Source of the DNA: Prolixibacteraceae bacterium
GTDB taxonomy: Bacteria > Bacteroidota > Bacteroidia > Bacteroidales > Prolixibacteraceae
Assembly (NCBI GenBank): GCA_023229575.1
Contig: JALNYZ010000009.1
Location: 69,581-133,580 of the forward strand
DNA: 64,000 nt
Direction: 5' to 3'
Numbering within the stretch: the first letter of the stretch is position 1; each line of letters begins with the position of its first letter. Below the pieces are notes generated by a model, which ran no database searches, was not told where the DNA came from, and saw only the letters and a list, made by a program, of their open reading frames with translations. Positions 14,294 through 64,000 of this stretch are shown piece after piece. Both the position numbers and the translations under genes were made by a program.

Positions 14294-14304
14294 TATCTTT
14301 CAAA

Positions 14305-37153: not shown

Positions 37154-37173
37154 ATTTCTAAAATTCGACAACC

Positions 37174-39030: not shown

Positions 39031-39046
39031 CTTAAAACTTTTAAAA

Positions 39047-42193: not shown

Positions 42194-42205
42194 TCTAGAC
42201 ACATT

Positions 42206-44026: not shown

Positions 44027-44046
44027 TATATATAAAAAAGATACAC

Positions 44047-45262: not shown

Positions 45263-45379
45263 GTGCCGTAGGCACATAATGTGGGTAGAAAGAGAATTTT
45301 GCGGATAATATCTCGTCCCGTACGGGACGAAATTTAGATCTGAATCCATTTTCTACCAACATAATATCCCTAACGGGAC
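45263..45379. repeat. REP/MITE-like cluster of short GC hairpins with nested inverted repeats
   Basis: Three hairpins or palindromes: GTGCCGTAGGCAC, CGTCCCGTACGGGACG (perfect 16-nt palindrome) and TCCCTAACGGGA. The central palindrome is flanked about 20 nt either side by GGTAGAAA (45284-45291) and TTTCTACC (45350-45357). Confidence 0.45.
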
Positions 45380-45428
45380 AATAAATCAAATTTTAATCAG
45401 CTTCTTAGCTTCACTCTAAATAAAGAAA

Positions 45429-46952
45429 ATGAGGAAAATAAAACTATCTGCAATTTTTTTACTGGTATCTGTTGTCTCACTTGCAGGATGTAACAAAGAC
45501 AAATCTGTCGTAAAAACCTTTACTGTAAATGTTATCACAGCGAACGGAACGGTTGAAAAAAGTCCCAATCTATCTACCTACAATGATGGGGCCCAGGTGC
45601 AATTGACAGCTAAGCCGAATCCCGATTTTAAGTTTACATCATGGAGCGGGGATATTACAAGTCCGGCAAATCCATTAACGGTTATCATGAATGGGGACAA
45701 AAATATCACGGCTAACTTTAATCAAATTGTTAAAGCTTTTACATTAACTGTGACAGCAATCAACGGAACTGTAGCCAATATGCCAGCGCTTGCTGTTTAT
45801 GCCAACGGGGCTTCGGTACAACTAACAGCAACGCCAAATTCAGGCTATACATTTACGTCGTGGGGTGGAGATGCCACCGGTTCGACAAATCCAGTGACGG
45901 TATTTATGGATGCGGAAAAAAATATTATCGCAAACTTTACGGCATTGCCTGCTACCATCGATGTGAAAAGTACAGGAGCAAAAGGTGATGGGGTGACCGA
46001 TGATACTGGGGCGATCCAGAACGCCATTGCTCAAATTGCCGGGACTGGCGGCACCGTTTTAATATCATCAGGCACCTACATGATCAATACCGGGGCTATT
46101 AACGATTATGCAGGAAGAAGAGGGCTTCAGTTGAAAAGCAACATGACATTAAAATTGGCCTCTGACGCAATATTGAAAGCAATCCCGAATAGTGGTGGGG
46201 TAGGTGGCACAGTTGTTGATCTCTTAAGCGCCGACAAAGTAGATATAACCGGTGGTACAATAATAGGCGACAGGGCGAACCCTGCACCCAATGAAAGTGG
46301 TGACTGTATTGCCGTCAGGGCTTCACACAATGTAACAGTAAAGAACATCACTTTAAAGGATGCCCATGATGATGGCATCATCATTGCATATGAATCTTCA
46401 AATGTTACTTTAGATGGTGTAGTTTCTGACAACAATCGGCGTCAGGGATTGTCCATCGTTTCGGTAGTTGGGGCTGTGATCAAAAACTCAGTTTTTAAAA
46501 ACACCATAGGTACCGCGCCCCAGTGTGGTATTGATGTTGAGCCAAATAAAGGAGAGGTTGTTAATGATGTCCTTATCCAAAATTGCGAGTTTTTTGGCAA
46601 TAAAAATCACGGGTTGGTACTGCAGGCTATGAATGGCGTTGTCAGCAATGTTATTGTTGATAAATGTTCATCTCACAACAATGTTTCGTGCGGTTTGGTG
46701 GCCTATAGAATATTATCAGCTTCAAAGAATAGTTTTACCAATAATACGGCCAATAACAATGGAAATTCCGGTATATTGTTAGGGAATAGTTCTGCGGATG
46801 TATCAGTTAACGGAAATATTTGCAACAACAATGGAAATTTCGGTATACTGATCAATAACAGCGCAACCGGGAACACCGATACAGGCAACACCGCCACCGG
46901 AAACACAAATGGGCAGATTGTTGACCAGGTTGGTGGCAATACAATCAAATAA
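45429..46952 (+). CDS. Surface lipoprotein: two divergent InlB B-repeat-like domains plus a pectate-lyase-fold beta-helix (paralogue of 1866-3413)
   Basis: Lipobox VVSLAGC. Two B-repeat units, GAKGDGVTDDTGAIQNAI, DNNRRQGLSIV and GIDVEPN. Collinear with the 1866 protein. Confidence 0.7.
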   Translation: MRKIKLSAIFLLVSVVSLAGCNKDKSVVKTFTVNVITANGTVEKSPNLSTYNDGAQVQLTAKPNPDFKFTSWSGDITSPANPLTVIMNGDKNITANFNQIVKAFTLTVTAINGTVANMPALAVYANGASVQLTATPNSGYTFTSWGGDATGSTNPVTVFMDAEKNIIANFTALPATIDVKSTGAKGDGVTDDTGAIQNAIAQIAGTGGTVLISSGTYMINTGAINDYAGRRGLQLKSNMTLKLASDAILKAIPNSGGVGGTVVDLLSADKVDITGGTIIGDRANPAPNESGDCIAVRASHNVTVKNITLKDAHDDGIIIAYESSNVTLDGVVSDNNRRQGLSIVSVVGAVIKNSVFKNTIGTAPQCGIDVEPNKGEVVNDVLIQNCEFFGNKNHGLVLQAMNGVVSNVIVDKCSSHNNVSCGLVAYRILSASKNSFTNNTANNNGNSGILLGNSSADVSVNGNICNNNGNFGILINNSATGNTDTGNTATGNTNGQIVDQVGGNTIK

Positions 46953-46954
46953 AA

Positions 46955-49312: not shown

Positions 49313-49320
49313 ATTGAACA

Positions 49321-50892
49321 ATGGGAAAAGCAATAATAACATTAATTCTGGCTTTTTGCTCGGCAAATATATTCGCCGAAAAGTTTGTGACAGAAATAAA
49401 ACCAATGACAGGAGAACAGTGGTATGGCGCTTATACCGCAAAAACCATTCAGCCCTATGGGGCCAATGTGAAGAAAATGGATTTAAATATTGAGAACTTC
49501 ACAAATCAGGCTGCACCGTTGCTTATTTCCAACATGGGCCGCTATGTTTGGAACGATAAACCTTTCGCCTTCGAATTTAAAGAGGGCAGTTTGATCCTTT
49601 ATTCTGAAACTGAAAAATTGGATGCTATTGCCTCCGGAAAAACACTGCGCGATGCGTATGTGGCAGTAAAGGATAATTATTTCCCTGCTTCTGGAAAAAC
49701 GCCCAATCCGCTGATGTTTAAAATGCCTCAATACAATACCTGGATTGAGCTTGGAACCAATCAAAATCAAAAAGATATTATAAAATATGCTGACAATGTA
49801 TTGAAAAACGGCTTCCCGACAGGCGTTTTTATGATTGATGATATATGGCAGAAATATTATGGAAACTTTGAATTTGATGCATCAAAGTTTTCCGATCCCA
49901 AAGGCATGGTGGACTATCTTCACGAAAAGGGTTTTAAAATTATGTTGTGGCTTACCCCATTTATCAGTCCTGATTGTAAGGAGTTTTTATTTTTGGAAAA
50001 AGAAGGATGTCTGGTGCTGAACAAAGAAAATAATAGTCCTGCCTTTATTAGATGGTGGAACGGCTACAGCGCCTGTCTGGATTTTACCAAACCGAAGGCC
50101 AATAATTGGTTAAAGGAACAATTGAAAAACCTGCAACAGAAATATGGTATTGACGGGTTCAAATTTGATGCGGCGGATTTTGATTTCTATTCCAAAAAAC
50201 CGACAAATGCGAGAGGATTTGAACAGGCCGAGATGTATGCAAAACTGGGAACTGCGTTCGATTTTAATGAGTTCAGGGCTTGTTGGAAAATGGGAAACCA
50301 ACCTCTTGCCCAGCGACTTGTAGATAAATCAAATTCTTGGGGCGATCTGAAATTGCTTGTTCCGGATATGGTTTCGGCAGGGCTCCTTGGTCATCCTTTT
50401 ACTTGTCCGGATATGATTGGCGGTGGATTGTTGTGGACTTTTTTAAACATTGATAAAAATAAGTTTGATCAGGAATTAATGGTCCGTTCTGCCCAAATAC
50501 AGGCTTTGATGCCGATGATGCAATTTTCGGTAGCGCCTTGGAGGGTGTTGGATGACAAGCATTTGTCACTGTGCCGTGAGGCAGCTTTGTTGCATGCCAA
50601 AATGGGTGGGTACATTTATGAACTGGCTCAAAAAGCCGCAAAGGACGGTGAGCCGATCGTTCGTCACATGGAATATTCTTTCCCGCATCAAGGATTCGAA
50701 GCTTGCAACGATCAGTACATGTTTGGAGAAAATTATTTAGTGGCCCCAATGATTGATAAAGGCGAAACAAGAGTGGTGAAATTACCAAAAGGGAATTGGG
50801 TTGATGATCAAGGTAAAAAATACAAGGGTGGACAATCAGTTACAATGAATGTACCACTTAATCGCCTCGTTTATTTTGTACGTCAGAAATAG
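49321..50892 (+). CDS. Clan GH-D alpha-glycosidase, GH31-like (paralogue of 3681-5297)
   Basis: PQYNTWIEL, IDDIWQKYYG, KIMLWLTPFISPD, IDGFKFDAADFD and MPMMQFSVAPWR, all collinear with the 3681 protein. Confidence 0.6.
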   Translation: MGKAIITLILAFCSANIFAEKFVTEIKPMTGEQWYGAYTAKTIQPYGANVKKMDLNIENFTNQAAPLLISNMGRYVWNDKPFAFEFKEGSLILYSETEKLDAIASGKTLRDAYVAVKDNYFPASGKTPNPLMFKMPQYNTWIELGTNQNQKDIIKYADNVLKNGFPTGVFMIDDIWQKYYGNFEFDASKFSDPKGMVDYLHEKGFKIMLWLTPFISPDCKEFLFLEKEGCLVLNKENNSPAFIRWWNGYSACLDFTKPKANNWLKEQLKNLQQKYGIDGFKFDAADFDFYSKKPTNARGFEQAEMYAKLGTAFDFNEFRACWKMGNQPLAQRLVDKSNSWGDLKLLVPDMVSAGLLGHPFTCPDMIGGGLLWTFLNIDKNKFDQELMVRSAQIQALMPMMQFSVAPWRVLDDKHLSLCREAALLHAKMGGYIYELAQKAAKDGEPIVRHMEYSFPHQGFEACNDQYMFGENYLVAPMIDKGETRVVKLPKGNWVDDQGKKYKGGQSVTMNVPLNRLVYFVRQK

Positions 50893-50907: not shown

Positions 50908-53900
50908 ATGAAAAAAGTAGCGTTTCTATTTATCCTTTTCCTTTTGTATTTGCAGCTTGCAGCTCAAAAGGCCACTATTACGGAAGAGGTTAGGGAGGTA
51001 CTCACCTATCCCTACAGCGACCCAAGCCCAATACCGGTATTGTCCGAAAGGAACTTCAAGATCTATCCTTACCACACATTCGATGGATATTCGGTAAGCG
51101 CAATGAAGCAAAAATGGAAAGTCGTAAAACTGGAAAACGATTACATAGAAGTCTATATTTTACCCGAAGTGGGGGGCAAGATCTGGGGGGCTGTCGAGAA
51201 ATCGACCGGCAAGGAGTTTATTTACCACAATGATGTGATGAAGTTCCGGAACATCTCCATGCGTGGCCCGTGGACTTCGGGTGGAATTGAATACAATTTG
51301 GGATTAATAGGACATTCACCTGCAACCTCGAGCCCTGTTGATTACCTGACCAGGGAAAATCCCGATGGAAGCGTAAGTTGTTTTGTTGGCAACATGGATT
51401 TGCCTTCCCGCACACAGTGGAGGGTTGAAGTGAGGTTGCCTAAAGACAAGGCATATTTTGAAACCATCCCCTTGTGGAACAACCCGACGCCAATTCCACA
51501 ATCCTACTATTGCTTTATGACCGGTGCTGCCGGTGTTTCTGACGATCTGGAGTTTTTCTATCCCGGAAACCAGGCGCTGGAGCACAATGGGAGGGTCAAG
51601 CCGTGGCCTTACCAGGATGGCCACCTCAAATCAATCTATCCGAACAACGCCTATGGTTCGCATACATCGATACATGTCGTTGGCGGCTACAATGACTTCA
51701 TGGGCGGCTATTACCACAAGTCGGAATTTGGTTTCGGCCATTGGGCCCTCTACAACGATATGCCGGGCCGCAAACTTTGGCTTTGGGCTTTGTCGGGTGA
51801 AGGCGAAATATGGAAGGACCTGTTAACCGACAGACACGGCCAATACATGGAATTCCAGGCCGGGCGCACCTTTAACCAATACGCGCAATCTTCGTTCAGA
51901 AGCCCCATTAAGGAGATGCCCTTTAATCCCGGTGTTACCGACCAATGGAAAGAGATCTGGTTTCCGGTAAAAGGGATAGGCGGATTGCAGGAAGTCTCCC
52001 CGATGGGCGTATTAAATGTCAAACATGAAAACGGAAAGCTGGAAATAGGGATCAATGCCCTCTCATTTGTTCAGGCCAAAATAATTGTCACCTCCAACGG
52101 GAAAACCATTTACACTCAGGACAAAAAATTCAGTCCAATGGATGTTTACAAAACTTCTGTTGCCCTGGCCGATGATGCCCCTTACGAAGTGAAGGCAGAA
52201 GGCATGGATCTTTTGCACGGTTCTGTAAACACAAAATTGATCAAACGGCCCTTTGCCACAGTTTTGCCAGCCGATCCCTCAAGCGCTTCAAGCTTGTACC
52301 AGGACGGGATACAACTGAAGGAGAACAGGAATTACAAATCTGCCAGGACAGCGTTAAAAAAGTGCCTGGCCAAAGATCCGCTTTACATAGATGCCATGGC
52401 AGCCCTGACCGAGTTGTATTACCGCAGCAATCAGCTGGATTCGGCATTGTTCTTTGCCAACCGGGCCTTGCAATTGGATGCATACCATCCGGCAGCCAAC
52501 TATTTTGAGGGAATAACTTATCGTGCCCAGGGAGACCTGGTCAATGCGCTTGAAACCTTTGGATGGGCCGCCCGATCGATGGAGTTTCGGTCTGCGGCCT
52601 ATTCCCAGATGGCCGGTATCGAACTTCAGCTTCATGACTTAAAGTTGGCACGCCACTATGCAAACCAGTCGTTGGACTATAATCGGTTCAATTTTAATGC
52701 CTTTAAAGTGCTGTCAATCATCTACCGGCAACAGGGGAATTTCGAACTGGCCGACCAGATGATCAACAATATGCTCACCATGGACCCATTGAACCATTTT
52801 GCCCGTTTTGAGCAATACCTTTTGCATTCTTCACCGGAGAACCTCGCCAAATTCAAAGAGGGGATCAGGAATGAATTCCCTTACCAGGCTTACCTTGAAT
52901 TGGCCATGGATTATTATGGTTCAGGTCAAAAGGATGATGCATTAATGGTACTTGAAAACGCACCGTCCCATCCGTTGGTTGGCCTCTGGAAGGCATTTCT
53001 GAAGAATGATCCGTCACTGCTGGCCGATATCGCGAAACAATCACCTGAATTTGTTTTCCCCTACCGTACTGAAACAGTTGCGGCATTGAACTGGGCGGTT
53101 GCAAACAGCAATCATTGGAAATTAAAGTATTACCTGGCATTAAACTATTGGGCCATTCAAAGGGAAGATGATGCCATAAAACTGTTCAGGGCTTGTGGAG
53201 CGGAACCTGATTATGCCATTTTCTACCTCTCGCGTGCCAGTCTGGATAAGCAAAGCGAAGGGAAGCAAGAGCTCAGTGACCTACTGACAGCCCATCGGTT
53301 GTCACCGGACGATTGGCGTACATCGGATAAGCTGATTGAGTATTATATAAATAACTCTGATAATAAAACTGCCTTATCCCTTTCAAGTGAAGCTTCCGCG
53401 AAATTTAAGAACAATTTCAACCTGGCCCTGCAACATGCCATCGTGCAGTTGAACAACAACCAATTCAGGGAGAGCATCAAAACGCTCGAAAACACCCAAA
53501 TACTTCCTTTTGAAGGATCTACGCAGGGAAAAACGGTGTATGAACAAGCTTGCCTGCTTCTTTCCATTGATCTGATGAAAAAGAAGAATTTTAGGGAAGC
53601 AATTGCAAACCTGGAAAAGTCGAAATCATGGCCTGCCAACCTTGGGGTAGGCGCGCCCTATGATCCGGATAACAGGATGCAGGATTACCTCGAAGCGATC
53701 TGCCTGGAAAAAACCGGCAAGGCCAAGGAGGCTGCCGGAATGCGGGATTCGGTACTGACATATACAAAACAACATTCCGGCGGATCCGGAAACAAATACA
53801 ACAACCTGCTTGCCCTTCTGATCCTGCAGCAGCAAGGAGAAACGGGATCTGTCGATGCCCTGATTAAAAATATTCAAGGAACAGGCCAACGCGGACAAAC

Positions 53901-54027
53901 GGTCAACCGCTGGGTTGTTGCTTATTTTAATCACGATAGTGCTACCTGCGGAACGTTGGAAAAAGAGTTGGACAAAGACCGTTACTTTATAATTATGAAA
54001 GGCATCCTTGGTTTTATCAACCAATAA
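50908..54027 (+). CDS. Large secreted protein: DUF5107-like N-terminal domain plus long C-terminal TPR array
   Basis: Signal peptide ...LQLAAQ. The N-terminal ~370 aa include EVGGKIWGAVEKSTGKEFIYHNDV..RGPWTSGGIEYNLG, which I recognise as DUF5107-like (mutarotase-like beta-sandwich). Residues ~480-1000 show repeated 34-aa TPR-like periodicity (e.g. ALKKCLAKDPLYIDAMAALTELYY). The function is unknown. Confidence 0.55.
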   Translation: MKKVAFLFILFLLYLQLAAQKATITEEVREVLTYPYSDPSPIPVLSERNFKIYPYHTFDGYSVSAMKQKWKVVKLENDYIEVYILPEVGGKIWGAVEKSTGKEFIYHNDVMKFRNISMRGPWTSGGIEYNLGLIGHSPATSSPVDYLTRENPDGSVSCFVGNMDLPSRTQWRVEVRLPKDKAYFETIPLWNNPTPIPQSYYCFMTGAAGVSDDLEFFYPGNQALEHNGRVKPWPYQDGHLKSIYPNNAYGSHTSIHVVGGYNDFMGGYYHKSEFGFGHWALYNDMPGRKLWLWALSGEGEIWKDLLTDRHGQYMEFQAGRTFNQYAQSSFRSPIKEMPFNPGVTDQWKEIWFPVKGIGGLQEVSPMGVLNVKHENGKLEIGINALSFVQAKIIVTSNGKTIYTQDKKFSPMDVYKTSVALADDAPYEVKAEGMDLLHGSVNTKLIKRPFATVLPADPSSASSLYQDGIQLKENRNYKSARTALKKCLAKDPLYIDAMAALTELYYRSNQLDSALFFANRALQLDAYHPAANYFEGITYRAQGDLVNALETFGWAARSMEFRSAAYSQMAGIELQLHDLKLARHYANQSLDYNRFNFNAFKVLSIIYRQQGNFELADQMINNMLTMDPLNHFARFEQYLLHSSPENLAKFKEGIRNEFPYQAYLELAMDYYGSGQKDDALMVLENAPSHPLVGLWKAFLKNDPSLLADIAKQSPEFVFPYRTETVAALNWAVANSNHWKLKYYLALNYWAIQREDDAIKLFRACGAEPDYAIFYLSRASLDKQSEGKQELSDLLTAHRLSPDDWRTSDKLIEYYINNSDNKTALSLSSEASAKFKNNFNLALQHAIVQLNNNQFRESIKTLENTQILPFEGSTQGKTVYEQACLLLSIDLMKKKNFREAIANLEKSKSWPANLGVGAPYDPDNRMQDYLEAICLEKTGKAKEAAGMRDSVLTYTKQHSGGSGNKYNNLLALLILQQQGETGSVDALIKNIQGTGQRGQTVNRWVVAYFNHDSATCGTLEKELDKDRYFIIMKGILGFINQ

Positions 54028-54043
54028 ATTCTTAAGAAAAAAA

Positions 54044-55492
54044 ATGAAAAAATTGTTGAATTTATTTTTGTCCATTGCTGTCATTTTTTTGATGGCCGTT
54101 GATGTTTCTGCCCAGAAAACCATAAAGGTTAGGTTCAATGAGACCGATGAAGTTTTGATCAATCCGGGAATGGGGTTTATGACCTTTCAAAGGTTTAACG
54201 GGGATGAAACAAATGCCGGGGTTGGCTGGACGGAAGGAAAGCCCATCGATTACCAAAAATTCAGCGGCAATCTGGTAACCAAAGACCATCCCATGACCTC
54301 CATTGCCTATTTCAGGGTTTACTGGAGATATCTGGAACCGGAAATGGGTAAATTTAACTGGGCGATGATCGATTTGGCCCTTAAAACGGCACATGACCGA
54401 AAACAGGCATTGATGCTCCGGATAGCTCCATATGGCGAAGATCCCGATGATGTCCCTGGTTGGTACCGTGCCATGGTTGGAGGCCCCTCTATGTGGCCGG
54501 GACAACCCAAATGGAGGGTTGATGCGGAAGATCCAAGATATCCGCAATACTTTGGAAGGTTTATAACTGAACTTGCCAAACGATATGACGGCCATCCTGA
54601 TCTCGAATCAGTTGACCTGGCCATTGTTGGATTCTGGGGCGAAGGCAGCAACGCTTCCATGCTGACGCAAAGAACCAGGGAGGCCCTGGTAACTGCCTAC
54701 ACCGATCATTTTAAAAAGACCCCGCTGATTATGATGCTGACAGATGAGAAGACAAATAAATTTGGTCTTATTCAGGCTAATGTTGGCTGGAGGGTCGACT
54801 GTATCGGCGATCTTGGATTTTGGTCCAAAGATCAGGCCAATCCTGATTATACCCACATGTACGATTATTATCCGCAGGGAATCATCAACTGGGGTATGAA
54901 AGACGCCTGGAAGAAGGCGCCCATCAGCATGGAAGTTTGCGGCACGATCAAGAGTTGGAAAGGGGAGAGGGGAACCTGCCAATATTGCCAGGGATATACC
55001 ATCGATCAGGTAAATTATATCATCGATGAAACCTTGAAATGGCATATCTCATCCTTCAATGCCAAATCATCCGGGGTACCGGACGAGTGGCGGCCGCTGA
55101 TCGACCGATGGCTCAAGAGGATGGGGTATCGGTTTGTACTGCGGAGTTTTTCTTATCCTGAATTCGTTTCGGCGGGAGGGCAAATCAACTTCAAATCCTG
55201 GTGGGACAACAAGGGTGTAGCGCCCATCTACAAAAAATACCTTCTTGCTGTCAGGTTGACAAATGAAAAAAGATCTGAGGTGATCGTTACCGATGCGGAT
55301 ATCAATTCATGGTTCCCAGGCGACAACCTTTATGATGATTCCGTATTTGTTCCTCAGGAGATGCCTGCCGGCATTTATCAGCTTCAAATTGGTATTGTAG
55401 ACCGTCAGTCGCATCAACCCAAAGTCAACCTCGCCATCCCGGGTAAAGATCCCGAAGGTTGGTATTCGCTTGGGAAAATAGAAATCAAATGA
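54044..55492 (+). CDS. Putative TIM-barrel glycoside hydrolase (DUF4874/DUF4832-like, clan GH-A-like)
   Basis: The ATG at 54044 gives MKKLLNLFLSIAVIFLMAVDVSAQ. Motifs YFRVYWRYLEPEMGKFNW and VGFWGEGS (candidate acid/base Glu). The family assignment is tentative. Confidence 0.45.
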   Translation: MKKLLNLFLSIAVIFLMAVDVSAQKTIKVRFNETDEVLINPGMGFMTFQRFNGDETNAGVGWTEGKPIDYQKFSGNLVTKDHPMTSIAYFRVYWRYLEPEMGKFNWAMIDLALKTAHDRKQALMLRIAPYGEDPDDVPGWYRAMVGGPSMWPGQPKWRVDAEDPRYPQYFGRFITELAKRYDGHPDLESVDLAIVGFWGEGSNASMLTQRTREALVTAYTDHFKKTPLIMMLTDEKTNKFGLIQANVGWRVDCIGDLGFWSKDQANPDYTHMYDYYPQGIINWGMKDAWKKAPISMEVCGTIKSWKGERGTCQYCQGYTIDQVNYIIDETLKWHISSFNAKSSGVPDEWRPLIDRWLKRMGYRFVLRSFSYPEFVSAGGQINFKSWWDNKGVAPIYKKYLLAVRLTNEKRSEVIVTDADINSWFPGDNLYDDSVFVPQEMPAGIYQLQIGIVDRQSHQPKVNLAIPGKDPEGWYSLGKIEIK

Positions 55493-55513
55493 CCTGATTA
55501 AACACTGAATGAA

Positions 55514-57820
55514 ATGAAAAAAATATTTAATTACCTGATACTCTTATCCGTTTTTTCAATAATTACGATTGACCTACCTGCAAGGTCGATTATCACACCT
55601 GAAGATCAGATATATCAAAGACGTGATAGCGGCTACATTACCCTGGGCAACAACCATCTGGAGATCTGCCTTTCAGAGAAGGATGGTACGATCCGTCACC
55701 TGATCAACAAGACCGATAAAGTCGACTATTGCAACCAGGTATTGGGGGCTTCAAACCGCGACCCGGAAGTACCGCTCAAAGAAGAGTTGGTGGGGGAAAG
55801 GATCGGAGGGGTGATGGTCTGTGATGACCTGGCCCAAAAAACATTTTCAGACCTCGCGGGAGGTTCAGTGATTTCGAATATCAGGATACTCAAAAACAAG
55901 GATGGTATTACCTGTACATTTGATAAGGCGTTTAAAGGTGCGGATTTTATCCTCAGACAAAGCTTTACGATCAGGGAGGACCATGTGCGATGGGAACTGC
56001 ATGCCAGAAAAATCCGGGGAGCTGACCGATCACTGAGGCTGGTGCAATTACTACCTTTTCCCACCTGGGAATATTCCTGTTGGGCCCCGATCGCAGAGAC
56101 GATCCCCACCAACCCCTGGTTGCCATTTCAGGTCACCTATGGCCAGCAGGATGCCGGGGCCGTCGGGAACGACAACTGGAGAACCGCCATCCCAATGATG
56201 GTGTTCTGGAGTGGAAGGCAAAAAAACGCCCTCTGTCTGGTTAACCCTTTCGAGATACCGGCAGTCAGGATTCGTTATCGCAATAATATAGGAATTGCCG
56301 AGGACTTTCACTGGAATAGCCGTAACTATAAGCTTGACGAACGTCCCTACCTCCAGGTTATCAGCGAGTACCTCGGACTTCGGGATAAGAAGGAAGCAGT
56401 TACAGGGCTATTGATCACGCTGCAGCCCCGCGACTGGCGTGCCTCCCTTGGGTGGGTCTACAATCAGTACAAAGAGTATTTTGATCCGGCACCGGGGTTT
56501 GGTAAATACGAGGGTAATTATGTTAACTCTGTTCCTTACCCGGACAGTTCCAACCAGGTACAGACCCAGGTCCGTTTCCAAAATTTACACGATCAGCAGT
56601 TCGTCCGGTGGTGGGAGATGCACATGCATTTCCCAAAATACGGTGAGATGGTCCCTCCCGATTCGGTTAAAAGCTGGACTTGCTTCAGTCACCCGAGACC
56701 GGGTTATACCAATAGCCGCGAAAAGATAGCCGCCCATGCGGAGGCCACTCGTGCAGCCGGCGTGGGCTGTTTCATCTATTACAATACAACCGAGAGCACA
56801 TGGTGGCACGCCAGGGACCAATTCCCTGAAAGCATCGCGCGCGATGAAAACGGAAATGTGATAGATGCCTTCATTGGCGCCAATTACCCGGAAAAGAAAG
56901 CATGCTGGTTGATGAATTCTGACCCGGAATCCTCTTTTGGAAAGGATATGTATAAACAAGCCACGGAGATGGTTAAGTTGTACCCTGCTATTGCCGGGTT
57001 TTTCTGGGATGTTTACGGAAGGACCTACAAGTTCGATTTTGCCCATGACGATGGGATTACAATGGTGAACAATAAGCCGGTCTATTTCCCTGAATTTATG
57101 TTCGAACGCATGATAGCGAAGGTAGGTCCTTTGCTGCATGGTAGCGGACGCTACATCACCTGTAACAAACCCACCATGGTCACCGGTTGCAAGGGAATTG
57201 ACGGTATCATGGCCAGGGAAGATACACCTGCACAGGAAAAGAACAAGTGGCTTGTATCCCAGAGCTACCTCGGCCTTAACCGTTATATGATGATATTGGA
57301 CGATCGCTCCTGGCAGCACCCTGAGCGTACACTACTCACCTGCCTGCTTTATGGTTATTTTTTTTCCGATATAAGTCAACCGACAGTCAGGGACTCGAAA
57401 ACCGTATACAATGGGAAGTATGGGACAGGCACTGTAGCTGATCAAAAAGAAAGGGCCCTGGCAATTGAAAAAAACTATCTTCCCCTGATAAAAATGTTCA
57501 AGGGCAGAAAATGGATTTTTTATCCCCGGGCTTTAGAACTGCCACCGATGACCGACGGCAACATTTTCAGACTCGAGGACGGTTCTGTAATGGTTACGAT
57601 GGTAAGCCTCTGGCGTGAACTTAACAACATTCCGGGCAGTGTCGAAGAAGCAATGATCAAGGTACGACTACCGGATGCAGGTGAGTTTAGTAAATTTACA
57701 CTTTATCAACCTGACCGGAATACAGAGAACAAGATTGAGCCCATTTCCCGTCAGGGCGACACCATGACTTTCCGGGTTACCGGGCATAGTCTGGCAAGTG
57801 TTGTTGTGTTGCGGAAATAA
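55514..57820 (+). CDS. Secreted protein of unknown function (768 aa)
   Basis: Signal-like N-terminus MKKIFNYLILLSVFSIITIDLP. I see no recognisable family motif. The middle segment (GCFIYYNTTES...AIAGFFWDVYG) is vaguely reminiscent of glycoside-hydrolase-like TIM barrels. The gene call is firm; the function is open. Confidence 0.5.
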   Translation: MKKIFNYLILLSVFSIITIDLPARSIITPEDQIYQRRDSGYITLGNNHLEICLSEKDGTIRHLINKTDKVDYCNQVLGASNRDPEVPLKEELVGERIGGVMVCDDLAQKTFSDLAGGSVISNIRILKNKDGITCTFDKAFKGADFILRQSFTIREDHVRWELHARKIRGADRSLRLVQLLPFPTWEYSCWAPIAETIPTNPWLPFQVTYGQQDAGAVGNDNWRTAIPMMVFWSGRQKNALCLVNPFEIPAVRIRYRNNIGIAEDFHWNSRNYKLDERPYLQVISEYLGLRDKKEAVTGLLITLQPRDWRASLGWVYNQYKEYFDPAPGFGKYEGNYVNSVPYPDSSNQVQTQVRFQNLHDQQFVRWWEMHMHFPKYGEMVPPDSVKSWTCFSHPRPGYTNSREKIAAHAEATRAAGVGCFIYYNTTESTWWHARDQFPESIARDENGNVIDAFIGANYPEKKACWLMNSDPESSFGKDMYKQATEMVKLYPAIAGFFWDVYGRTYKFDFAHDDGITMVNNKPVYFPEFMFERMIAKVGPLLHGSGRYITCNKPTMVTGCKGIDGIMAREDTPAQEKNKWLVSQSYLGLNRYMMILDDRSWQHPERTLLTCLLYGYFFSDISQPTVRDSKTVYNGKYGTGTVADQKERALAIEKNYLPLIKMFKGRKWIFYPRALELPPMTDGNIFRLEDGSVMVTMVSLWRELNNIPGSVEEAMIKVRLPDAGEFSKFTLYQPDRNTENKIEPISRQGDTMTFRVTGHSLASVVVLRK

Positions 57821-57890
57821 TGCCGGGGACAAGCGAAAATAGTGCATTATTTCCGGAAATGCTGAATTCGGAAATACAAACAGAATGCAC
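57813..57890. promoter_or_regulatory. Dyad and direct-repeat cluster in the only large gap of the 45-64 kb gene array
   Basis: 11-bp stem GGAAATAATGC (57813-57823) / GCATTATTTCC (57844-57854). A 12-nt palindrome ATTTCCGGAAAT (57849-57860). Three CGGAAAT copies at 57812, 57854 and 57869. GTGCATT / AATGCAC at 57842 and 57884. Confidence 0.3.
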
Positions 57891-58044
57891 GAAAAGACCT
57901 CTTTTGGTTGTCACCCTTTTATTTGCAATAAGTGTCTCTATAGAAACTGACACATCATGCCTCAGGACAGATTATTGAGGTTTTCGGTAATACCATCAAG
58001 GACAATACAACAATTCAATCACCCATTTATAAAAAGTAAATACC

Positions 58045-59742
58045 ATGAGATTATCTTTTCACATCACTATCTTGTTCCTGGCCGTTTTTTCTTTTGTTGA
58101 ACTATTTGGTCAGACAACACAGGAAAAGCCATTGAACCCTTTTGCTGTTTCAACTTATGAATGCAGCAGTATCTATTGGGAAACCCCCGAGGCAGGTATT
58201 TGCAAAATCCGTTACAAAGAAGTTTTAGGAAACTCCTGGAAAGAGGGACTGGAACTGGTATATGATGCCCGTGACAGTGAGTACCGTGGAAGTCTGGTTG
58301 GATTGGCGCCAAATACAGAATACCAGGCAGAACTCTCCACCGCTTCTTCAAAAACAAAGTTAAAATTCAAAACCAGGAATGATAATTTCCAAATAGGCAA
58401 AACTACCATACTACCGACTGGTGAATCGGATACCACAGTTGTCATTACCGAATCTGGCACTCCTGAGGCATACCACCTTGTAACTGTTCCTGAAAATGCC
58501 AAGTCGGTTCTTAACCTCAGGAACACCTGCAATTACGGAATTGAGATTGATGCTGATTTCGTTATCCTCCGAGGGGTTGAAATCAGAAATGCGAAGATTC
58601 ATGGAATAAGGGTCAGGGCCAACCGGCATGATATTGTAATTGAACAATGTCATTTGGCTTTCTGGGGAAGAATGGGCGGGCCAATTTCTTACGGGAACTT
58701 TGATGGTAATTCGGACAGCGGTATATGGGCAGACAGCGGGACCGAAAATATTACGGTCCAGCGGAATTTGATCGAAGATCCCAGGGGCGCTTCAAACGAT
58801 TGGGAAACAGGCCATCCAAGTGGTCCCCAGGGAGTGACCATCATTCAAAGCAGAGGTGGAAATGTGATTCGTTACAATGATATTGTGACCACGGAGGATC
58901 ATGGTTTCAATGACGCTATCGGGGGGGCAAACAATTTTTCGTTCGAGGGAAACATGAACAGGAATTCTGATATTTATGGAAATATTATCCGTGGCGCGTG
59001 GGACGATGCGATTGAGAGCGAAGGGGCAAATATGAATGTCCGGATTTGGGGAAACTACCTGCATCGCTTTTTTAACGGCATCGCGAGCGCATGTACATCA
59101 AGGGGGCCTTTGTATTGCTTTAGGAATGTGTTTGGGGAAAGCAGGACCGGCCATAGGAACTCTATTGGGGGATCACTTTTTAAACTGGGCGGCAGAAATG
59201 AATTTGCGGGTGGGAAACGGTTTCTTTTCCACAATACCGCCTTGCAACCCAATGGCGCTTATAATGCATTCAGCAATTTCAGTTCGGAGCTGAACTGCGT
59301 CCATAGCCGAAACAATATTTTTGATACACCCGGAAGAATGGCAACCAATAGAGAGAAGGAGCCACTCAGTATTTATGATTATGATTATTTTCCTGGTTCC
59401 CAGGAAGAGCATGGCATAAGGGTTAGCACTACTCCCTCAGGTACAAGATTGTTTGTAGAGTCATACAAATTGGAATTCTATCCCCGGGTAAATATTATCA
59501 GCATTAATTGGGGAGTTCAACCAAATAAGTTTGGCGACTTGAAGGTTAAAGTAACTGATCCGCTTGGCTGGGTAAAAAACCCAATGATAGATGGAGGTGT
59601 AGTTATTCCTGGATTTAATGACGACTTCAAAGGAAGCGCTCCCGATGCGGGCGCTTTTGAAGTAGGCGCCCCTCCATTGCAATTCGGAAGACGCGCCTAC
59701 CTTGGATATGATGAAGGCTGGTGTCCCTGGGAAAAATTTTAA
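58045..59742 (+). CDS. Secreted FnIII-like plus right-handed parallel beta-helix protein (putative glycanase or lyase)
   Basis: Signal peptide ...VELFGQ. An N-terminal beta-sandwich of about 90 aa (SSIYWETPEAGICKIRY...NTEYQAEL). Then beta-helix rungs (VILRGVEIRNAKIHGIRV, IVIEQCHL, NIIRGAWDDAIESEGANMNVRIWGNYLH). Confidence 0.55.
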   Translation: MRLSFHITILFLAVFSFVELFGQTTQEKPLNPFAVSTYECSSIYWETPEAGICKIRYKEVLGNSWKEGLELVYDARDSEYRGSLVGLAPNTEYQAELSTASSKTKLKFKTRNDNFQIGKTTILPTGESDTTVVITESGTPEAYHLVTVPENAKSVLNLRNTCNYGIEIDADFVILRGVEIRNAKIHGIRVRANRHDIVIEQCHLAFWGRMGGPISYGNFDGNSDSGIWADSGTENITVQRNLIEDPRGASNDWETGHPSGPQGVTIIQSRGGNVIRYNDIVTTEDHGFNDAIGGANNFSFEGNMNRNSDIYGNIIRGAWDDAIESEGANMNVRIWGNYLHRFFNGIASACTSRGPLYCFRNVFGESRTGHRNSIGGSLFKLGGRNEFAGGKRFLFHNTALQPNGAYNAFSNFSSELNCVHSRNNIFDTPGRMATNREKEPLSIYDYDYFPGSQEEHGIRVSTTPSGTRLFVESYKLEFYPRVNIISINWGVQPNKFGDLKVKVTDPLGWVKNPMIDGGVVIPGFNDDFKGSAPDAGAFEVGAPPLQFGRRAYLGYDEGWCPWEKF

Positions 59743-59753
59743 ATTCTAATTCC

Positions 59754-61709
59754 ATGAAAATTCCAAACCATTCACTTGTGATTCTTATCCTGTCGTTTGC
59801 TTTTGTATCATCCTGCAATCAAATGCAAACCTATACTGTCGGAAAAATCAATGATCCCGATCTACTTAAATATCCTGCCCCTGCTCCGGTTCATCCCGTT
59901 TCCAAGAGTTTCGTGGTAACAGGTACAAACCATGTAGAAGAGATTACCGTCAATTCCCGGCATTTAAGAAATCTATCCATCACCATTGAAAATAATGGTA
60001 AAGGAGTCATCAAAGAGCCTCATCTTTTTGGTCCACAGGGTTGGGATTTACGAGGGGATTCGGATGCCTACAAGGCTTTGGCAACAAACATTACCCAGGG
60101 AAATCTTACCAAAGAGCAGAAATTTTTCAGGGCTTTCGAATGGACGGCGCTGCACATTCACAGGGCTGAAATGACCAATGCACCTAATTATACTGGTTAT
60201 TTTCATGCGGGCAATGCTTCCCGCCTTTTGAACCAATATGGTGCCTGCATGTGTGGGGAATTTCACCATGTGGTAAACCCAATCTATGTTAAAATTCCAG
60301 GCGCAGGAATGTATGGGACAATTTACGGTATGGGCGGCCATAATGCTGGTGGCGCCTTCTGGGATGGGAAGTGGCATGATTATAATGGTACCCCGGATAT
60401 TCAGATCGTTCATTATAAAATGGATGGAAAAACCATTGCAACCTGGGAAGAATTAAAAAAAGACCCTGCACCTATTGATTCGCTGAATAAAATTATAGGC
60501 CGACACCTCACTTATGGCAAAAGTCTCGGTCCCGATTCTCCAATATGCCCTTTGAACAGTACACCTTTCCCACCTAAATTTTATGAATCCAATTATCTCG
60601 TAAAATTCAAATACAGCGATTTGAGGCCCAATGAAAAAATGACCCTCTTTTTTGACATGAGGGGTAGATTTGACTCGACCAGCGCCAGATTTAATTCGTA
60701 TAAAGGGGGTGCACCCAGGAGCTGGGTGGATTACGGAAGTGTGGTTTATACCTACATGCCGAACTTTCACAATTCCCTGTATGAGCCTTTCATCGTAGAA
60801 CAAAACAATGTCCAGCGTACCGCAAAGGGATTGATCCCGGTCGATCCTTCAAAACCTTCCTTTGTCGTTTTTGCTTCCAACCATTATCCCTGGTATCATG
60901 TGGGTGCAGATATCAAAGCATGGTTTAAAACGAACGGTAATGTCTATATTGCCCGTAACAATACGATACCAGGCCAGGGAAATCAGGGCGCTGATACTAT
61001 ATACTCAAATCTTACCTGGGCCAAACTGAGTCCTGAACTAAAGGATTACCCTAAATCTTCCATTATTGCGAAGTCCTGTTACTGGATAAAATTTGAATTT
61101 TCGGGCAAGGGTTCAGGCCTCGACAGCGCAGAAGTTTCTTCTGAACTTCAGATGAGCCAGTGGGCTATGCCCGGATTGGAATATGGAAAAAATTACATCC
61201 GTTTCACAGCGAAAGATATGGGAGGCAGTTCTGCCAAAGTCACCTATAACTACGATGATCAATCGACTTATTATTTCTACGAACCTGCAACAAGCCCGAC
61301 AGGAAAACATATCTATCATCGTCTTGGAGGAAAATTACAGCACTCATCAGGGCTTTGGAAAAAATCCGCATTTTGGCCTCGCATGAAGGATTCTACTGAT
61401 GTAACAACAAATGTAACAGTGCGGATTTTCAATGCCCAGAACACCTCCAATATTCGATGCGTCCGGACATTGTTTGCCAATAAACCGCTTCACTGGGGTT
61501 ACTATTGGTGGTACTGGGATGGGAAAGATGATAAAGGAGCGTTACTTCCCCCTGGGATGTACGTCTATCGAATTGAAACAGACAAGGATACTAATCCGGT
61601 CCATGCTGCCTTTGTCTATTTATATCCTGACGGCATTTGGCCTTTGCCCAATGAATTAAGAAACAGCGCCCCGCCAGTTGACGGATTGGAAGATACATCC
61701 CACAACTAA
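59754..61709 (+). CDS. Lipoprotein with a transglutaminase-like Cys/His/Asp core and a C-terminal FlgD-Ig-like domain
   Basis: The ATG at 59754 gives MKIPNHSLVILILSFAFVSSC (lipobox). YGACMCGEFHH ... GGHNAGGAFWDGKWHDYNGTPD fits the G.C..f ... H.w.e...g.W...D.t pattern of the transglutaminase core. The C-terminal WYWDGKDDKGALLPPGMYVYRIE fits the FlgD-Ig pattern. Confidence 0.4.
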   Translation: MKIPNHSLVILILSFAFVSSCNQMQTYTVGKINDPDLLKYPAPAPVHPVSKSFVVTGTNHVEEITVNSRHLRNLSITIENNGKGVIKEPHLFGPQGWDLRGDSDAYKALATNITQGNLTKEQKFFRAFEWTALHIHRAEMTNAPNYTGYFHAGNASRLLNQYGACMCGEFHHVVNPIYVKIPGAGMYGTIYGMGGHNAGGAFWDGKWHDYNGTPDIQIVHYKMDGKTIATWEELKKDPAPIDSLNKIIGRHLTYGKSLGPDSPICPLNSTPFPPKFYESNYLVKFKYSDLRPNEKMTLFFDMRGRFDSTSARFNSYKGGAPRSWVDYGSVVYTYMPNFHNSLYEPFIVEQNNVQRTAKGLIPVDPSKPSFVVFASNHYPWYHVGADIKAWFKTNGNVYIARNNTIPGQGNQGADTIYSNLTWAKLSPELKDYPKSSIIAKSCYWIKFEFSGKGSGLDSAEVSSELQMSQWAMPGLEYGKNYIRFTAKDMGGSSAKVTYNYDDQSTYYFYEPATSPTGKHIYHRLGGKLQHSSGLWKKSAFWPRMKDSTDVTTNVTVRIFNAQNTSNIRCVRTLFANKPLHWGYYWWYWDGKDDKGALLPPGMYVYRIETDKDTNPVHAAFVYLYPDGIWPLPNELRNSAPPVDGLEDTSHN

Positions 61710-61741
61710 AAATCTGATTATAAACGATTAAAAACAATAAT

Positions 61742-63310
61742 ATGATGAAATCATTGAAACGCACCTATGTCCCATATTCTCTTTTAGGAATACCTTCAGC
61801 TTTGGCAAAACCAACACTCCAATTTGTAATTTTGATCGTAATAATTCTATCTGTTAAGAGATGTTACGCAATAGAACAATTGAAAGATGGCGGATTACGC
61901 ATCGGCTGGTCTATTGAAGACATTACACCGGCCGGGCCCGTATCATTGACCGGCCAATATTACGACAGGATATCAACCTACGTCCAAAGCCCGTTAAAAG
62001 TCACTGCATGTGCGATTGAATCTGCAAACGAAATGGGGATCAAAGAGCAGGCCATCATGGTATCGGTAGATCTGGTGGAAATTCCACGCGTGTTACAGGA
62101 TTCGTTAAAGAACCGGGTAAAGAAGCAAATTCCTGATTTTGATGTCAGGAAACTCTTTATGAATGCAACACATGACCATTCCGCAGCCAATCCTGATATT
62201 ACTACTGAATATGGAAAATTCCTGGTTACAAAAGCTTGTCAGGCCGCTGTAACTGCCTGGAACAAACGCAAACCTGCTGGTATCAGCAGGGTGTTGGGAT
62301 ATGCGGTTGTCGGCCATAACCGGCGTGCACAATATGCCAACGGTACCACAGAAATGTATGGGGCAACTGATAGAAAAGATTTTATCGGGATGGAAGGTGC
62401 CACAGATCCCGGAGTTGATATGCTTTACTGTTGGGACCTGAACATGAAGCTGACCGGAATTATCATGAATGTCTCCTGTCCTGCACAGGTAACTGAGGCG
62501 AGATACTATGTTTCAGCGGATTATTGGGGAGAAGTCAGAAATTACATTCAGAAAAAATTCTCCACAGATGTATATATTTTACCCCAGTGTGGAGCTGCCG
62601 GAGATTTGTCCCCCCGCGACCTGCCCCGTGGCTACAGGGGCGGTGAACCCAACATGTGGGATGTTCCGGGCATCGTTGAGATTGGAAGAAGGCTGGCACA
62701 GGTCATTGATGCAACTTATCCGGATGCCACGAAGAACATTCAAACATCCCCCATATTTAAACATACCGTTGCAGATGTCGATCTTCCCAGAAGGAAAGTA
62801 ACGGAAAAAGAATACCAGAAAGCATTGAAGATTGTCACTGAAATACGCTCCAGGGAACCGAAAGATGCCAATTCTCCCAACACCGCGTGGAACAGGTTCC
62901 TGAAGGAGATGCACGACAATGAAAAAATAAGGGATTATGGTCCCTGGGACAACAAAGAATCCGATTTTGGCATCGTAAAAATCAACGAGCGTATATTAAA
63001 TATCTATGCAAATCAAGACAAACACCCAGTTTATCCTGTGGAGTTACATGTTATTCGTATTGGTGATGTGGCAATTGCTTCCAATCCATTTGAACTTTAT
63101 GTCGACTATGGATTTGCTATGAAAGGTAGAAGTAAAGCGAACCAAACCTTTGTGGTCCAATTAACAGGGGATTATGGGGATTATCTGCCCACAGCAAGGG
63201 CTATTCCCGGTGGCCAGTACAGCGCCCTGGTTTCAATAGTTGGGCCGGAAGGCGGGCAAATGCTGGTGGACACAACTGTGAATATGATCAATGGTATGTG
63301 GGGGAAATGA
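61742..63310 (+). CDS. Neutral/alkaline-ceramidase-like N-terminal-domain protein, divergent paralogue 3
   Basis: Collinear with paralogues 1 and 2: IGWSIEDITP, MVSVDL, LFMNATHDHSAAN (HTH replaced by HDH), CPAQVTE, DYWGEVR, GAAGDLSPRDL, HVIRIGDVAIAS, YLPTARAIPGGQYSAL. Confidence 0.55.
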   Translation: MMKSLKRTYVPYSLLGIPSALAKPTLQFVILIVIILSVKRCYAIEQLKDGGLRIGWSIEDITPAGPVSLTGQYYDRISTYVQSPLKVTACAIESANEMGIKEQAIMVSVDLVEIPRVLQDSLKNRVKKQIPDFDVRKLFMNATHDHSAANPDITTEYGKFLVTKACQAAVTAWNKRKPAGISRVLGYAVVGHNRRAQYANGTTEMYGATDRKDFIGMEGATDPGVDMLYCWDLNMKLTGIIMNVSCPAQVTEARYYVSADYWGEVRNYIQKKFSTDVYILPQCGAAGDLSPRDLPRGYRGGEPNMWDVPGIVEIGRRLAQVIDATYPDATKNIQTSPIFKHTVADVDLPRRKVTEKEYQKALKIVTEIRSREPKDANSPNTAWNRFLKEMHDNEKIRDYGPWDNKESDFGIVKINERILNIYANQDKHPVYPVELHVIRIGDVAIASNPFELYVDYGFAMKGRSKANQTFVVQLTGDYGDYLPTARAIPGGQYSALVSIVGPEGGQMLVDTTVNMINGMWGK

Positions 63311-63365: not shown

Positions 63366-64000
63366 ATGAGAAAAGTTTGCCTGATTGTGATTTTGTTGTC
63401 CGCAATATTTGCAGGTTGCGTCCCATCAAAGTTGATCACAGTCTATACAATTGGTGATTCTACTATGGCGAATAAGAAACCGGAGGTATATCCGGAGACG
63501 GGATGGGGACAGAAATTTCAAGACCATTTCGACTCAAAAGTAAAGGTTAGCAATCACGCAATAAATGGCAGAAGTTCAAAGAGTTTTATTGACGAAGGGA
63601 GTTGGAAAAAGGTATTGGACAGCCTTAAACGTGGTGATTATGTTTTTATTCAGTTTGGACATAACGACGAAAAAGCTAATCTTCCCTCCCATTTCACGGA
63701 TCCGCGGTCGAGTTTCAGGCAATACCTTGAAAAGTATATTCGGGAAACCAGGGAGAAAGGGGCTACACCGGTATTGTTAACCCCAATTGTTCGCCGGAAA
63801 TTCGATGAATCCGGAAAACTCATCGAAACCCATGGAAAGTATCCTGATGCGGTACGCGAAGTGGCTGCCAATAAAAAAGTTAAACTTATTGATATGCAGA
63901 TAATCACCTATTCGTTCGTTAATTCAATGGGTGATGAACCTTCAAAAAAAATGTACCTGTGGACTTCACCCGACCAGAAATTCCCTGAGGGGAGAAAAGA
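63366..64000 (+). CDS. SGNH/GDSL hydrolase, CE12 rhamnogalacturonan-acetylesterase-like; 3' end outside the window
   Basis: Absent from the ORF track because no stop is reached, but the frame from the ATG at 63366 stays open to nt 64000. Lipobox-like LLSAIFAGC, TIGDSTM (block I Ser), NHAINGRSSKSF (block II) and FIQFGHND (block III). Confidence 0.8.
   Translation, partial: MRKVCLIVILLSAIFAGCVPSKLITVYTIGDSTMANKKPEVYPETGWGQKFQDHFDSKVKVSNHAINGRSSKSFIDEGSWKKVLDSLKRGDYVFIQFGHNDEKANLPSHFTDPRSSFRQYLEKYIRETREKGATPVLLTPIVRRKFDESGKLIETHGKYPDAVREVAANKKVKLIDMQIITYSFVNSMGDEPSKKMYLWTSPDQKFPEGRK

Follow-up and report, generated by a model that had tools for sequence, protein, structure and literature searches.

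Six consecutive + strand genes, here named P1–P6, occupy positions 50908–63310 of a 64,000-nucleotide (nt) stretch of contig JALNYZ010000009.1 from a Prolixibacteraceae bacterium (this whole stretch is called the window, and coordinates are positions in it). Our analysis makes it rather probable that they encode exported accessory hydrolases of a polysaccharide utilization locus (PUL) with an extracytoplasmic function (ECF) sigma/anti-sigma pair, and that this PUL serves a glycoconjugate with alpha-galactosyl (alpha-Gal) and beta-N-acetylhexosaminyl (beta-HexNAc) residues. The six proteins look like divergent branches of known superfamilies, that is candidates for new enzyme families and not new folds, and because of this branching we regard the locus as an instance of familiar uncharacterised PUL genes, not as a new system. 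It is mainly in PULs that new families of carbohydrate-active enzymes are looked for, and here six unassigned exported proteins are found in 12 kb. Fold-level hypotheses can now be offered for three of them: a GH36-like alpha-glycosidase (P3; GH stands for glycoside hydrolase family), a Cys-His amidase (P5) and a metal amidohydrolase (P6).

Gene structure and export signals

P1 (50908–54027, 1039 amino acids (aa)), P2 (54044–55492, 482 aa), P3 (55514–57820, 768 aa), P4 (58045–59742, 565 aa), P5 (59754–61709, 651 aa) and P6 (61742–63310, 522 aa) are all found in the list of open reading frames (ORFs), where an earlier note on this DNA had placed them. Lengths of P2 and P5 are counted from their ATG starts, the mechanical ORFs beginning at TTG 54008 and GTG 59721, respectively. 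Intergenic gaps along the block are, in order, 15, 16, 21, 224, 11, 32 and 55 nt; this recomputation agrees with the sizes of 11–55 nt plus one gap of 224 nt that had been given before. An export signal, which had been proposed for every product, is present on all six: signal peptides of the signal peptidase I type (SPI-like) at the N-termini of P1–P4, a lipobox in P5 (LILSFAFVSSC followed by N) and a hydrophobic signal anchor at the N-terminus of P6.

Families were searched for in Pfam, NCBIfam and PDB sequences (the PDB libraries, of sequences and of folds, reaching to 2026), and our assignments are limited to those libraries. In them no characterised enzyme family takes in any of the six proteins, as the earlier note had also concluded. 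Full-text literature searches for DUF5107, DUF4832, DUF4874, Pel9A-like proteins and for ceramidase combined with PUL gave no functional data. Named homologs of P3, P4 and P5 are all 'hypothetical' or generic; for P3 and P4 the protein database also has entries of 100% identity.

P3, a conserved family with a predicted GH36-like fold

P3 has no match in Pfam (even at E ≤ 10), NCBIfam or PDB sequences, and a PDB search with a 49-sequence profile was also empty. It had been described as an orphan, which it is not: at least 119 homolog clusters at 40–66% identity are spread over several phyla (Acidobacteriota, Gemmatimonadota, Glassbacteria, KSB1 and others), all of them unnamed. In the AlphaFold2 (AF2) model (predicted local distance difference test (pLDDT) 87.5, predicted template modelling score (pTM) 0.88) a (beta/alpha)8 barrel lies between an N-terminal and a C-terminal beta-sandwich. 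Foldseek matches it best with GH36 alpha-galactosidases (E 4e-18, template modelling (TM) score 0.56), followed by a GH36 galactosaminidase, GH66, GH101 and GH129, all at ~10% identity. Invariant acidic residues of the family include E368, D470, D499, D512 and D513; the barrel region holds the invariant D470, D499 and D512/D513 and the near-invariant D563 and E569. Judging by the model, P3 is probably a GH36/clan GH-D-like retaining alpha-glycosidase. A relation of P3 to the 558-aa protein at 21983 was also considered and rejected, the latter being a ceramidase-like paralog (see below).

The closest P3 relatives outside this lineage (65–66% identity) lie on two unrelated contigs, L135 (1209–2201) and L136 (3396–4376), and in both an SBF-like transporter gene (bile acid/Na+ symporter family) stands upstream. 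In a Bryobacteraceae contig (L001, 1–14523) the P3 homolog is part of a run of five large unannotated proteins (~700–1000 aa), two of which weakly match DUF6259/GHL6; this would be a further cluster of putative glycosidases.

P6 and two paralogs, a divergent branch of the ceramidase superfamily

P6 has no Pfam match at E ≤ 0.01. The earlier description of it as ceramidase-like holds at the superfamily level: a four-sequence P6 profile matches the Pseudomonas neutral ceramidase 2zws across the HxH motif (E 0.002), and the ceramidase hidden Markov model (HMM) PF04734 is matched at E ≤ 0.01 by 48 of the 63 family members sampled, the best E value being 2.5e-11. The family comprises 664 clusters (50% identity level) at E ≤ 1e-30, its members are ~480–520 aa long versus 646 aa for 2zws, and residues H144, H146, R194, Q249, D260, G287, E451 and Y481 are invariant in it. 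From these profile and motif data P6 is probably a divergent ceramidase-superfamily branch and a metal-dependent amidohydrolase, with zinc as the putative metal.

Two paralogs of P6 with 35–36% identity to it are encoded on the + strand of the preceding PUL (block B, see below): a 558-aa protein (21983–23659; BLASTP E 7e-93, 35%) and a 509-aa protein (29772–31301; E 2e-102). On PF04734 the second reaches E 3.5e-7 and 29.7 bits, which is under the cut-off of 32.1; the first has no Pfam match at E ≤ 1e-4. Three ceramidase-superfamily paralogs are spread in this way over two adjacent PULs, in a family that lies under the Pfam ceramidase threshold.

P5, a lipoprotein with a transglutaminase/papain-like core

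P5 has no Transglut_core HMM match, and Pfam searched to E ≤ 10 gives a weak C-terminal FlgD_ig match alone. The family is rare, with 36 homolog clusters. In the AF2 model (pLDDT 86.4) the protein is multi-domain: a beta-sandwich, a transglutaminase/papain-like core, further beta-sandwich domains and a C-terminal FlgD-Ig-like domain, for which the fold match has a probability of 0.99. The core carries the motif NQYG..MCGE ... GH..GE..DG.WH with invariant C167 and H196, the Cys being located at a helix N-terminus; 30 of 31 sequences share D224, and in distant homologs the classical transglutaminase-core motif H..GE..DG.WH..D.TP still has its Asp. With the invariant Cys/His motif and weak fold matches to factor XIII (FXIII) and transglutaminase 2 (TG2), the label 'transglutaminase-like' that P5 had received is reasonable at the superfamily level. 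On the strength of motif and model, P5 is probably a surface lipoprotein with the activity of an amidase, peptidase or glycoamidase.

Since a P5 homolog sits among five GH123 genes in the PUL of L051, a cryptic GH123 was also considered and rejected: P5 has no TIM barrel and no structure match to GH123/beta-NGA. The FlgD-Ig-like domain (residues 551–623) weakly resembles the CHU_C/type IX secretion system (T9SS) sorting domain (E 0.005), and a lipobox together with a T9SS-sorting-like domain is an odd pairing of export signals.

P4, P2 and P1

P4, with an Fn3-like domain and a right-handed beta-helix, matches Beta_helix (PF13229) at E 2.6e-4 and 21.1 bits, under the cut-off of 25.9, and most of its homologs carry weak precomputed matches to PF22842 (Pel9A-like). 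More than 1869 homolog clusters belong to this family, the best 120 of them at 62–80% identity. A profile search of the PDB found no solved relative, giving faint Fn3 matches alone at residues 54–103. The InlB-repeat beta-helix proteins of the window were tried as P4 paralogs and rejected, there being no similarity. Going by these signals, P4 looks like an Fn3 + beta-helix glycanase or lyase-like protein.

For P1 and P2 the former labels, 'DUF5107-like + TPR' and 'DUF4832-like', are borne out by Pfam matches above cut-off. Residues 51–354 of P1 match DUF5107 (PF17128) with E 1.7e-123 and 411.9 bits (gathering cut-off 24.4), and a tetratricopeptide repeat (TPR) solenoid follows, reaching into the C-terminal third. 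Its sole solved relative is 5cd6, a 'TPR-domain containing protein' with no assigned function (E 2e-23). P2 matches DUF4832 (PF16116) with 67 bits and E 2.7e-18 (cut-off 29.2) and has no match in the PDB sequence search. Signals below threshold come from GH42 (PF02449, 20.3–20.4 bits, just under the cut-off of 21), from the NCBIfam model GH35_fam (E 8e-4, 18 bits versus a cut-off of 500) and from DUF4874 (E 0.24); they suggest that the N-terminal half of P2 may be a clan GH-A-like barrel.

PUL context in the window

The window is a nearly continuous series of + strand genes in which three PUL-like blocks, A, B and C, can be distinguished. Block C, to which P1–P6 belong, begins with an ECF sigma factor (31548–32156; Pfam Sigma70_r2/r4_2) and a FecR-type anti-sigma factor (32415–33578; FecR and FecR_C), followed by two SusC/SusD pairs in the order SusC, SusD, SusC, SusD (33683–44026; Plug and CarboxypepD_reg for SusC, SusD_RagB for SusD), of which the first SusC (33683) bears an STN signalling domain. 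Next come a BT_3987-like surface protein and the upstream enzymes (together 44008–50892), namely an InlB-repeat + beta-helix protein starting at 45429, a GH3 protein at 46955 and a short GH31 alpha-galactosidase at 49321. Beyond P6 lies a CE12-like (carbohydrate esterase) GDSL/SGNH esterase lipoprotein (63366–64000, cut by the window end; Lipase_GDSL_2 E 7e-16), whose translation includes TIGDSTMA. All these genes are on the + strand. The genetic context described in the earlier note, from the sigma factor to the downstream esterase, was thus seen in full by Pfam.

The GH31 protein at 49321 matches the PDB entries 8j53/8j50, 'GH31 alpha-galactosidase', over residues 21–521 with E 6e-188, and MYORG with E 7e-63. 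These entries we take to be enzymes of GH31_19 with specificity for Gal-alpha-1,4-Gal and globotriose.

Block A contains SusD, an InlB-repeat + beta-helix protein, a short GH31, a GH20, a major facilitator superfamily (MFS) transporter and a URO-D-like protein. Block B starts with FecR, STN-SusC, SusD, the 558-aa P6 paralog, GH3 and GH51, and goes on with a xylose-isomerase-like TIM barrel, PhyH and the 509-aa protein with the weak ceramidase match. Paralogy runs across these PULs: there are three ceramidase-like proteins and two each of GH31, InlB-beta-helix and GH3, the two GH31 proteins being 45% identical to each other. The pairing of an InlB-B-repeat + beta-helix protein (Pect-lyase_RHGA_epim) with a short 8j53-like GH31 is itself duplicated (1866–5297 and 45429–50892), the beta-helix member of the pair being unclassified.

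Some further features of the window should be mentioned. FecR at 15310 and STN-SusC at 16428 have no adjoining ECF sigma gene; this FecR gene is 318 nt from the upstream ribulose-phosphate epimerase gene (region 14991–16308), and the sigma factor at 31548 is the sole one seen in the window. Between PULs, at 28056–29700, the xylose-isomerase-like TIM barrel and the PhyH dioxygenase form a cytoplasmic-looking pair, and 10073–14991 holds a GntR-type regulator, two Zn-dependent dehydrogenases, a second TIM-barrel-like protein and ribulose-phosphate 3-epimerase. The cytoplasmic-looking genes between the PULs may serve downstream sugar catabolism.

Conservation of the neighbourhood

If the six genes formed a conserved unit, the other five families should accompany P3 elsewhere. 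At 47 loci with P3 homologs they are almost always absent, housekeeping genes making up most of the neighbours (DUF885, pyrroline-5-carboxylate (P5C) reductase, DNA polymerase III tau, HypF, MazG). Because such neighbours reflect Acidobacteriota synteny, the analysis of P3 neighbours is uninformative.

Parts of the block do recur. A related metagenome contig, L053, has the order P3, beta-helix, P4, P5, GH20, P6, esterases, with identities to the window of 93% for P3, 88% for P4, 86% for P5, 79% for GH20 and 84% for P6. Its GH20 gene (6141–7766) is the counterpart, 79% identical, of the GH20 gene of block A (5309–6916), and from this placement genes appear to have been shuffled between the PULs of the window. 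In L051 homologs of P5 and P4 (63 and 64% identity) are parted by a GH123 gene and one unannotated gene, within a PUL with five GH123 genes; in L067 they are adjacent (38 and 31%). A Bacteroidales PUL (L137) has a P4 homolog together with two GH20 and a GH27. A distant P5 homolog is located among sulfatases, GH172, an esterase and other GHs (L139), and another P5 homolog beside a beta-helix + LamG protein (L056). Judging from these gene orders, P4 and P5 behave like a linked pair, whose usual companions are beta-N-acetylhexosaminidases and alpha-galactosidase-type enzymes.

P3 homologs too have carbohydrate-related neighbours in places. An Acidobacteriaceae locus (L047) reads GH65-like, P3, FG-GAP, DUF5107 + TPR, GH42-like, the DUF5107 + TPR protein (22% identical to P1) being encoded two genes downstream of the P3 homolog; a Bryobacteraceae locus (L025) combines a P3 homolog with a beta-helix protein, a ceramidase-like protein and GH29. 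Because sub-modules recur in carbohydrate clusters, the families are repeatedly glycan-associated. The interpretation given in the earlier note is upheld in part: relatives of P3, P4, P5 and P6 are found in other carbohydrate clusters, but synteny of the whole block does not recur.

The 224-nt gap and the mosaic structure of the block

The gap between P3 and P4 (57821–58044) had been described as full of dyad symmetry. Inverted repeats are indeed present, and they surround repeat-coding remnants, but the folding of the gap is unexceptional (z –1.68) and a regulatory dyad region is not what they form. A regulatory RNA or terminator was rejected as an explanation: the gap contains no terminator-like site, has no Rfam match and holds a pseudogene remnant instead. 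At 57849–58007 on the + strand lies a decayed remnant of a beta-helix gene's 3' end, as seen from matches to L053. Window positions 57965–58007 are 91% identical to L053 2022–2064 (E 4e-11), the final codons of the beta-helix gene in that contig, and 57849–57877 are 86% identical to L053 1989–2017, the preceding rung. The corresponding gap translations, ISGNAEFGNT and GQIIEVFGNTIKDN, are in two different frames, and the intact L053 gene (984–2090, 368 aa) ends in ISGNAVFGNTTGQITEVSGNTIKDNKVTPSVQR before its stop codon. By this comparison, the gap is the scar of a lost beta-helix gene with frameshifted C-terminal remnants.

The GC content of third codon positions (GC3) changes at the same place. 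It is 0.52–0.56 in P1–P3 and 0.42–0.44 in P4–P6, the other genes of the window ranging roughly from 0.35 to 0.55 and most of them from 0.40 to 0.51, and the break coincides with the pseudogene scar. The rise in P1–P3 suggests a different history or expression level. Because the gap is a decayed beta-helix gene that is intact in the related contig, two modules, P1–P3 and P4–P6, make up the block as a mosaic and meet at that gene.

A mosaic could also mean that the block is no functional whole. At least two unrelated modules would then stand side by side through rearrangement and gene loss, P1–P3 as a later-acquired cassette and P4–P6 as an older module for a beta-HexNAc-rich glycan, with separate transcripts and different substrates. 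The GC3 values and the dead gene at the junction speak for this, as do P3 homologs, most of which are found outside Bacteroidota and outside glycan clusters, and the P4–P5 pair, which travels without P1–P3 in L051 and L067. However, in L053 the P3 gene (93% identity) is still beside the P4–P5–P6 module, so that the juxtaposition has been kept between close relatives; besides, all genes are co-directional, the other gaps are 11–55 nt and the 224-nt gap has no terminator-like site. We consider such an origin from unrelated modules unlikely.

Proposed role of the block and other explanations

In the explanation that we prefer, P1–P6 would be the distal accessory-enzyme end of the sigma/anti-sigma-controlled PUL. 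Glycosidic bonds would be cleaved by P3 as an alpha-glycosidase, by P2 as a clan GH-A-like beta-glycosidase and by P4 as a glycanase or lyase-like enzyme, and amide or ester bonds by P5, P6 and the downstream SGNH esterase; for P1, with DUF5107 and TPR, no role is proposed. Together with the upstream GH3, the GH31 alpha-galactosidase, the beta-helix enzyme and the SGNH esterase, they would complete the degradation of a complex glycoconjugate, imported or bound at the surface, with alpha-galactosyl and beta-N-acetylhexosaminyl residues and with amide- or ester-linked substituents. Catalytic activity of the proteins, the types of bond and the substrate, co-transcription of the genes and action on one common glycan are what we infer from gene structure, folds and partial synteny. 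The earlier note had left the choice between several new glycan-active families and a non-glycosidic debranching or deacylating machinery; fold and motif evidence points to hydrolases and fits both.

Several observations weigh against this explanation. In searchable literature no measured activity exists for any member of the six families. The catalytic residues of P3 could not be placed, and hhalign of P3 to the GH31 proteins of the window gives no signal (probability 0.9%), that is no profile relation. The majority of P3 homologs, in Acidobacteriota and elsewhere, stand alone amid housekeeping genes, and because of this P3 need not be tied to the glycan in question. On the ceramidase HMM PF04734 P6 itself scores E 0.15 and 11.1 bits (cut-off 32.1), the HMM of the ceramidase C-terminal domain is matched by none of the 63 P6-family members, and the family has no obvious second zinc-binding His, C246 and Q249 being conserved instead. 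Best PDB folds for P5, FXIII and TG2, are weak (E 7e-5, probability 0.44, TM 0.13), and the column of the canonical Asp, which is Asp in distant homologs, is Asn in the Bacteroidota clade of P5. Finally, the 224-nt gap splits the block.

Some of the six proteins might already belong to recent CAZy families, or to polysaccharide lyase (PL) or carbohydrate esterase (CE) families, that are outside Pfam, NCBIfam and the PDB sequence set. P4, from a very large conserved family, and P2, with its long-standing DUF, are typical targets of CAZyme discovery screens. On the other hand, PDB sequence and fold libraries to 2026 contain no close match for P2–P6, the full-text searches for DUF5107, DUF4832, DUF4874 and Pel9A-like proteins led to no functional characterisation, and homologs are named 'hypothetical' or generic throughout, which leaves this explanation with a rather small probability.

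Another explanation starts from the ceramidase-like proteins and assumes the use of glycosphingolipids or other glycolipids. The three PULs would dismantle a globo-type head group, or one of the glycosylinositol phosphorylceramide (GIPC) type of plants and fungi, stepwise: GH20 (GH123 in relatives) would remove beta-linked N-acetylgalactosamine (beta-GalNAc), GH31 and P3 alpha-Gal, P2 beta-Gal and GH3 beta-Glc, and at the last step P6 and its two ceramidase-superfamily paralogs would cleave the amide bond of the ceramide. The set of GH20/GH123, GH31, GH-A-like, GH3 and ceramidase-like proteins mirrors globoside catabolism. It includes three ceramidase-superfamily paralogs over two PULs, the close match of GH31 to the solved alpha-galactosidase 8j53/8j50 (E 6e-188), GH20 both in the window and between P5 and P6 in L053, GH3 present twice, and P5/P4 relatives amid five GH123 genes in L051; the founding member of GH123 is a glycosphingolipid beta-GalNAc-ase. 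Against it, no endoglycoceramidase, sphingolipid kinase/lyase or lipid-transport gene was seen in the window, SusC/SusD systems are to our knowledge not lipid importers, the GH51 arabinofuranosidase, the SGNH esterase and the beta-helix enzymes do not suit animal glycosphingolipids, P6 is remote from true ceramidases both in HMM score (E 0.15) and in having no C-terminal domain, and a literature search found no precedent for a PUL ceramidase, all of which makes glycolipid use very doubtful.

Coming back to the accessory hydrolases of an alpha-Gal/beta-HexNAc PUL, we would tentatively go one step further, to a possibility that we hold to be less probable than its opposite. The block and its paralogs may found at least three new glycoconjugate-active families: a GH-D-fold alpha-glycosidase (P3), a Cys-His glycoamidase or peptidase of transglutaminase fold partnering the P4 beta-helix enzyme (P5), and a ceramidase-fold de-N-acylase serving in PULs (P6 and its two paralogs). 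If true, Bacteroidota would have a non-glycosidic, amide-cleaving 'debranching' toolkit for an alpha-Gal/beta-HexNAc-rich substrate, possibly of glycosphingolipid or lipoglycan type. New enzyme classes in glycan and glycolipid catabolism would follow if P6 and the ~660 related clusters are PUL-borne de-N-acylases or ceramidases, and new classes likewise if P4–P5 is a depolymerase/amidase couple for beta-GalNAc-rich glycans. Either case would provide reagents for glycan editing.

Comparison with known systems

P3 has the same three-domain order as GH36 and clan GH-D enzymes (AgaA, SpAga, FpGalactosaminidase; GH129 NagBb; also GH101 and GH66), with Foldseek TM scores of 0.5–0.6, and it is exported and encoded in a glycan locus. 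It differs from GH36 by its ~10% identity and by the lack of any Pfam, PDB sequence or profile match (Melibiase, GH36 and GH31 HMMs). Unlike GH36, it belongs to a family that has its centre in Acidobacteriota and Gemmatimonadota and in many cases lies outside glycan clusters. P1 and P2 are by HMM clear members of DUF5107 (with 5cd6) and of DUF4874/DUF4832, but these are function-unassigned families and membership in them gives P1 and P2 no activity.

P4 shares with beta-helix lyases and hydrolases (PL9 Pel9A-like, GH28) weak Beta_helix and Pel9A-like signals and an N-terminal Fn3-like domain. In contrast to them it stays under all gathering thresholds and has no solved relative by profile, and its partners are GH20, GH123, GH27 and P5, not pectinases. 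P5 resembles the transglutaminase-like superfamily (FXIII/TG2, bacterial Cys peptidases, the peptide:N-glycanase (PNGase) Png1) in having a Cys, a His ~29 residues on and then Asn/Asp, and resembles animal transglutaminases in its flanking beta-sandwich domains. It departs from that superfamily in the missing Transglut_core match, the weak fold score and the Asn as third triad residue in its clade; moreover, P5 is a lipoprotein that ends in a FlgD-Ig-like domain and belongs to a rare family seen in carbohydrate clusters throughout. Of the neutral/alkaline ceramidases (PF04734; the Pseudomonas enzyme PaCD, 2zws) the P6 family has retained the HxH motif, the invariant Arg, Glu and Tyr as well as a GDxSP-like motif, while it has no C-terminal domain, carries an invariant C-P-A-Q where the second zinc His is expected and occurs in SusC/SusD loci as three paralogs.

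As a whole, the locus shares with ECF-sigma/anti-sigma PULs of Bacteroidota the sigma factor, FecR, STN-SusC, SusD and the downstream CAZymes, all co-directional. What sets it apart from them is the unusually long tail (~12 kb) of enzymes without family assignment, and the recurrent paralogy with two neighbouring PULs.

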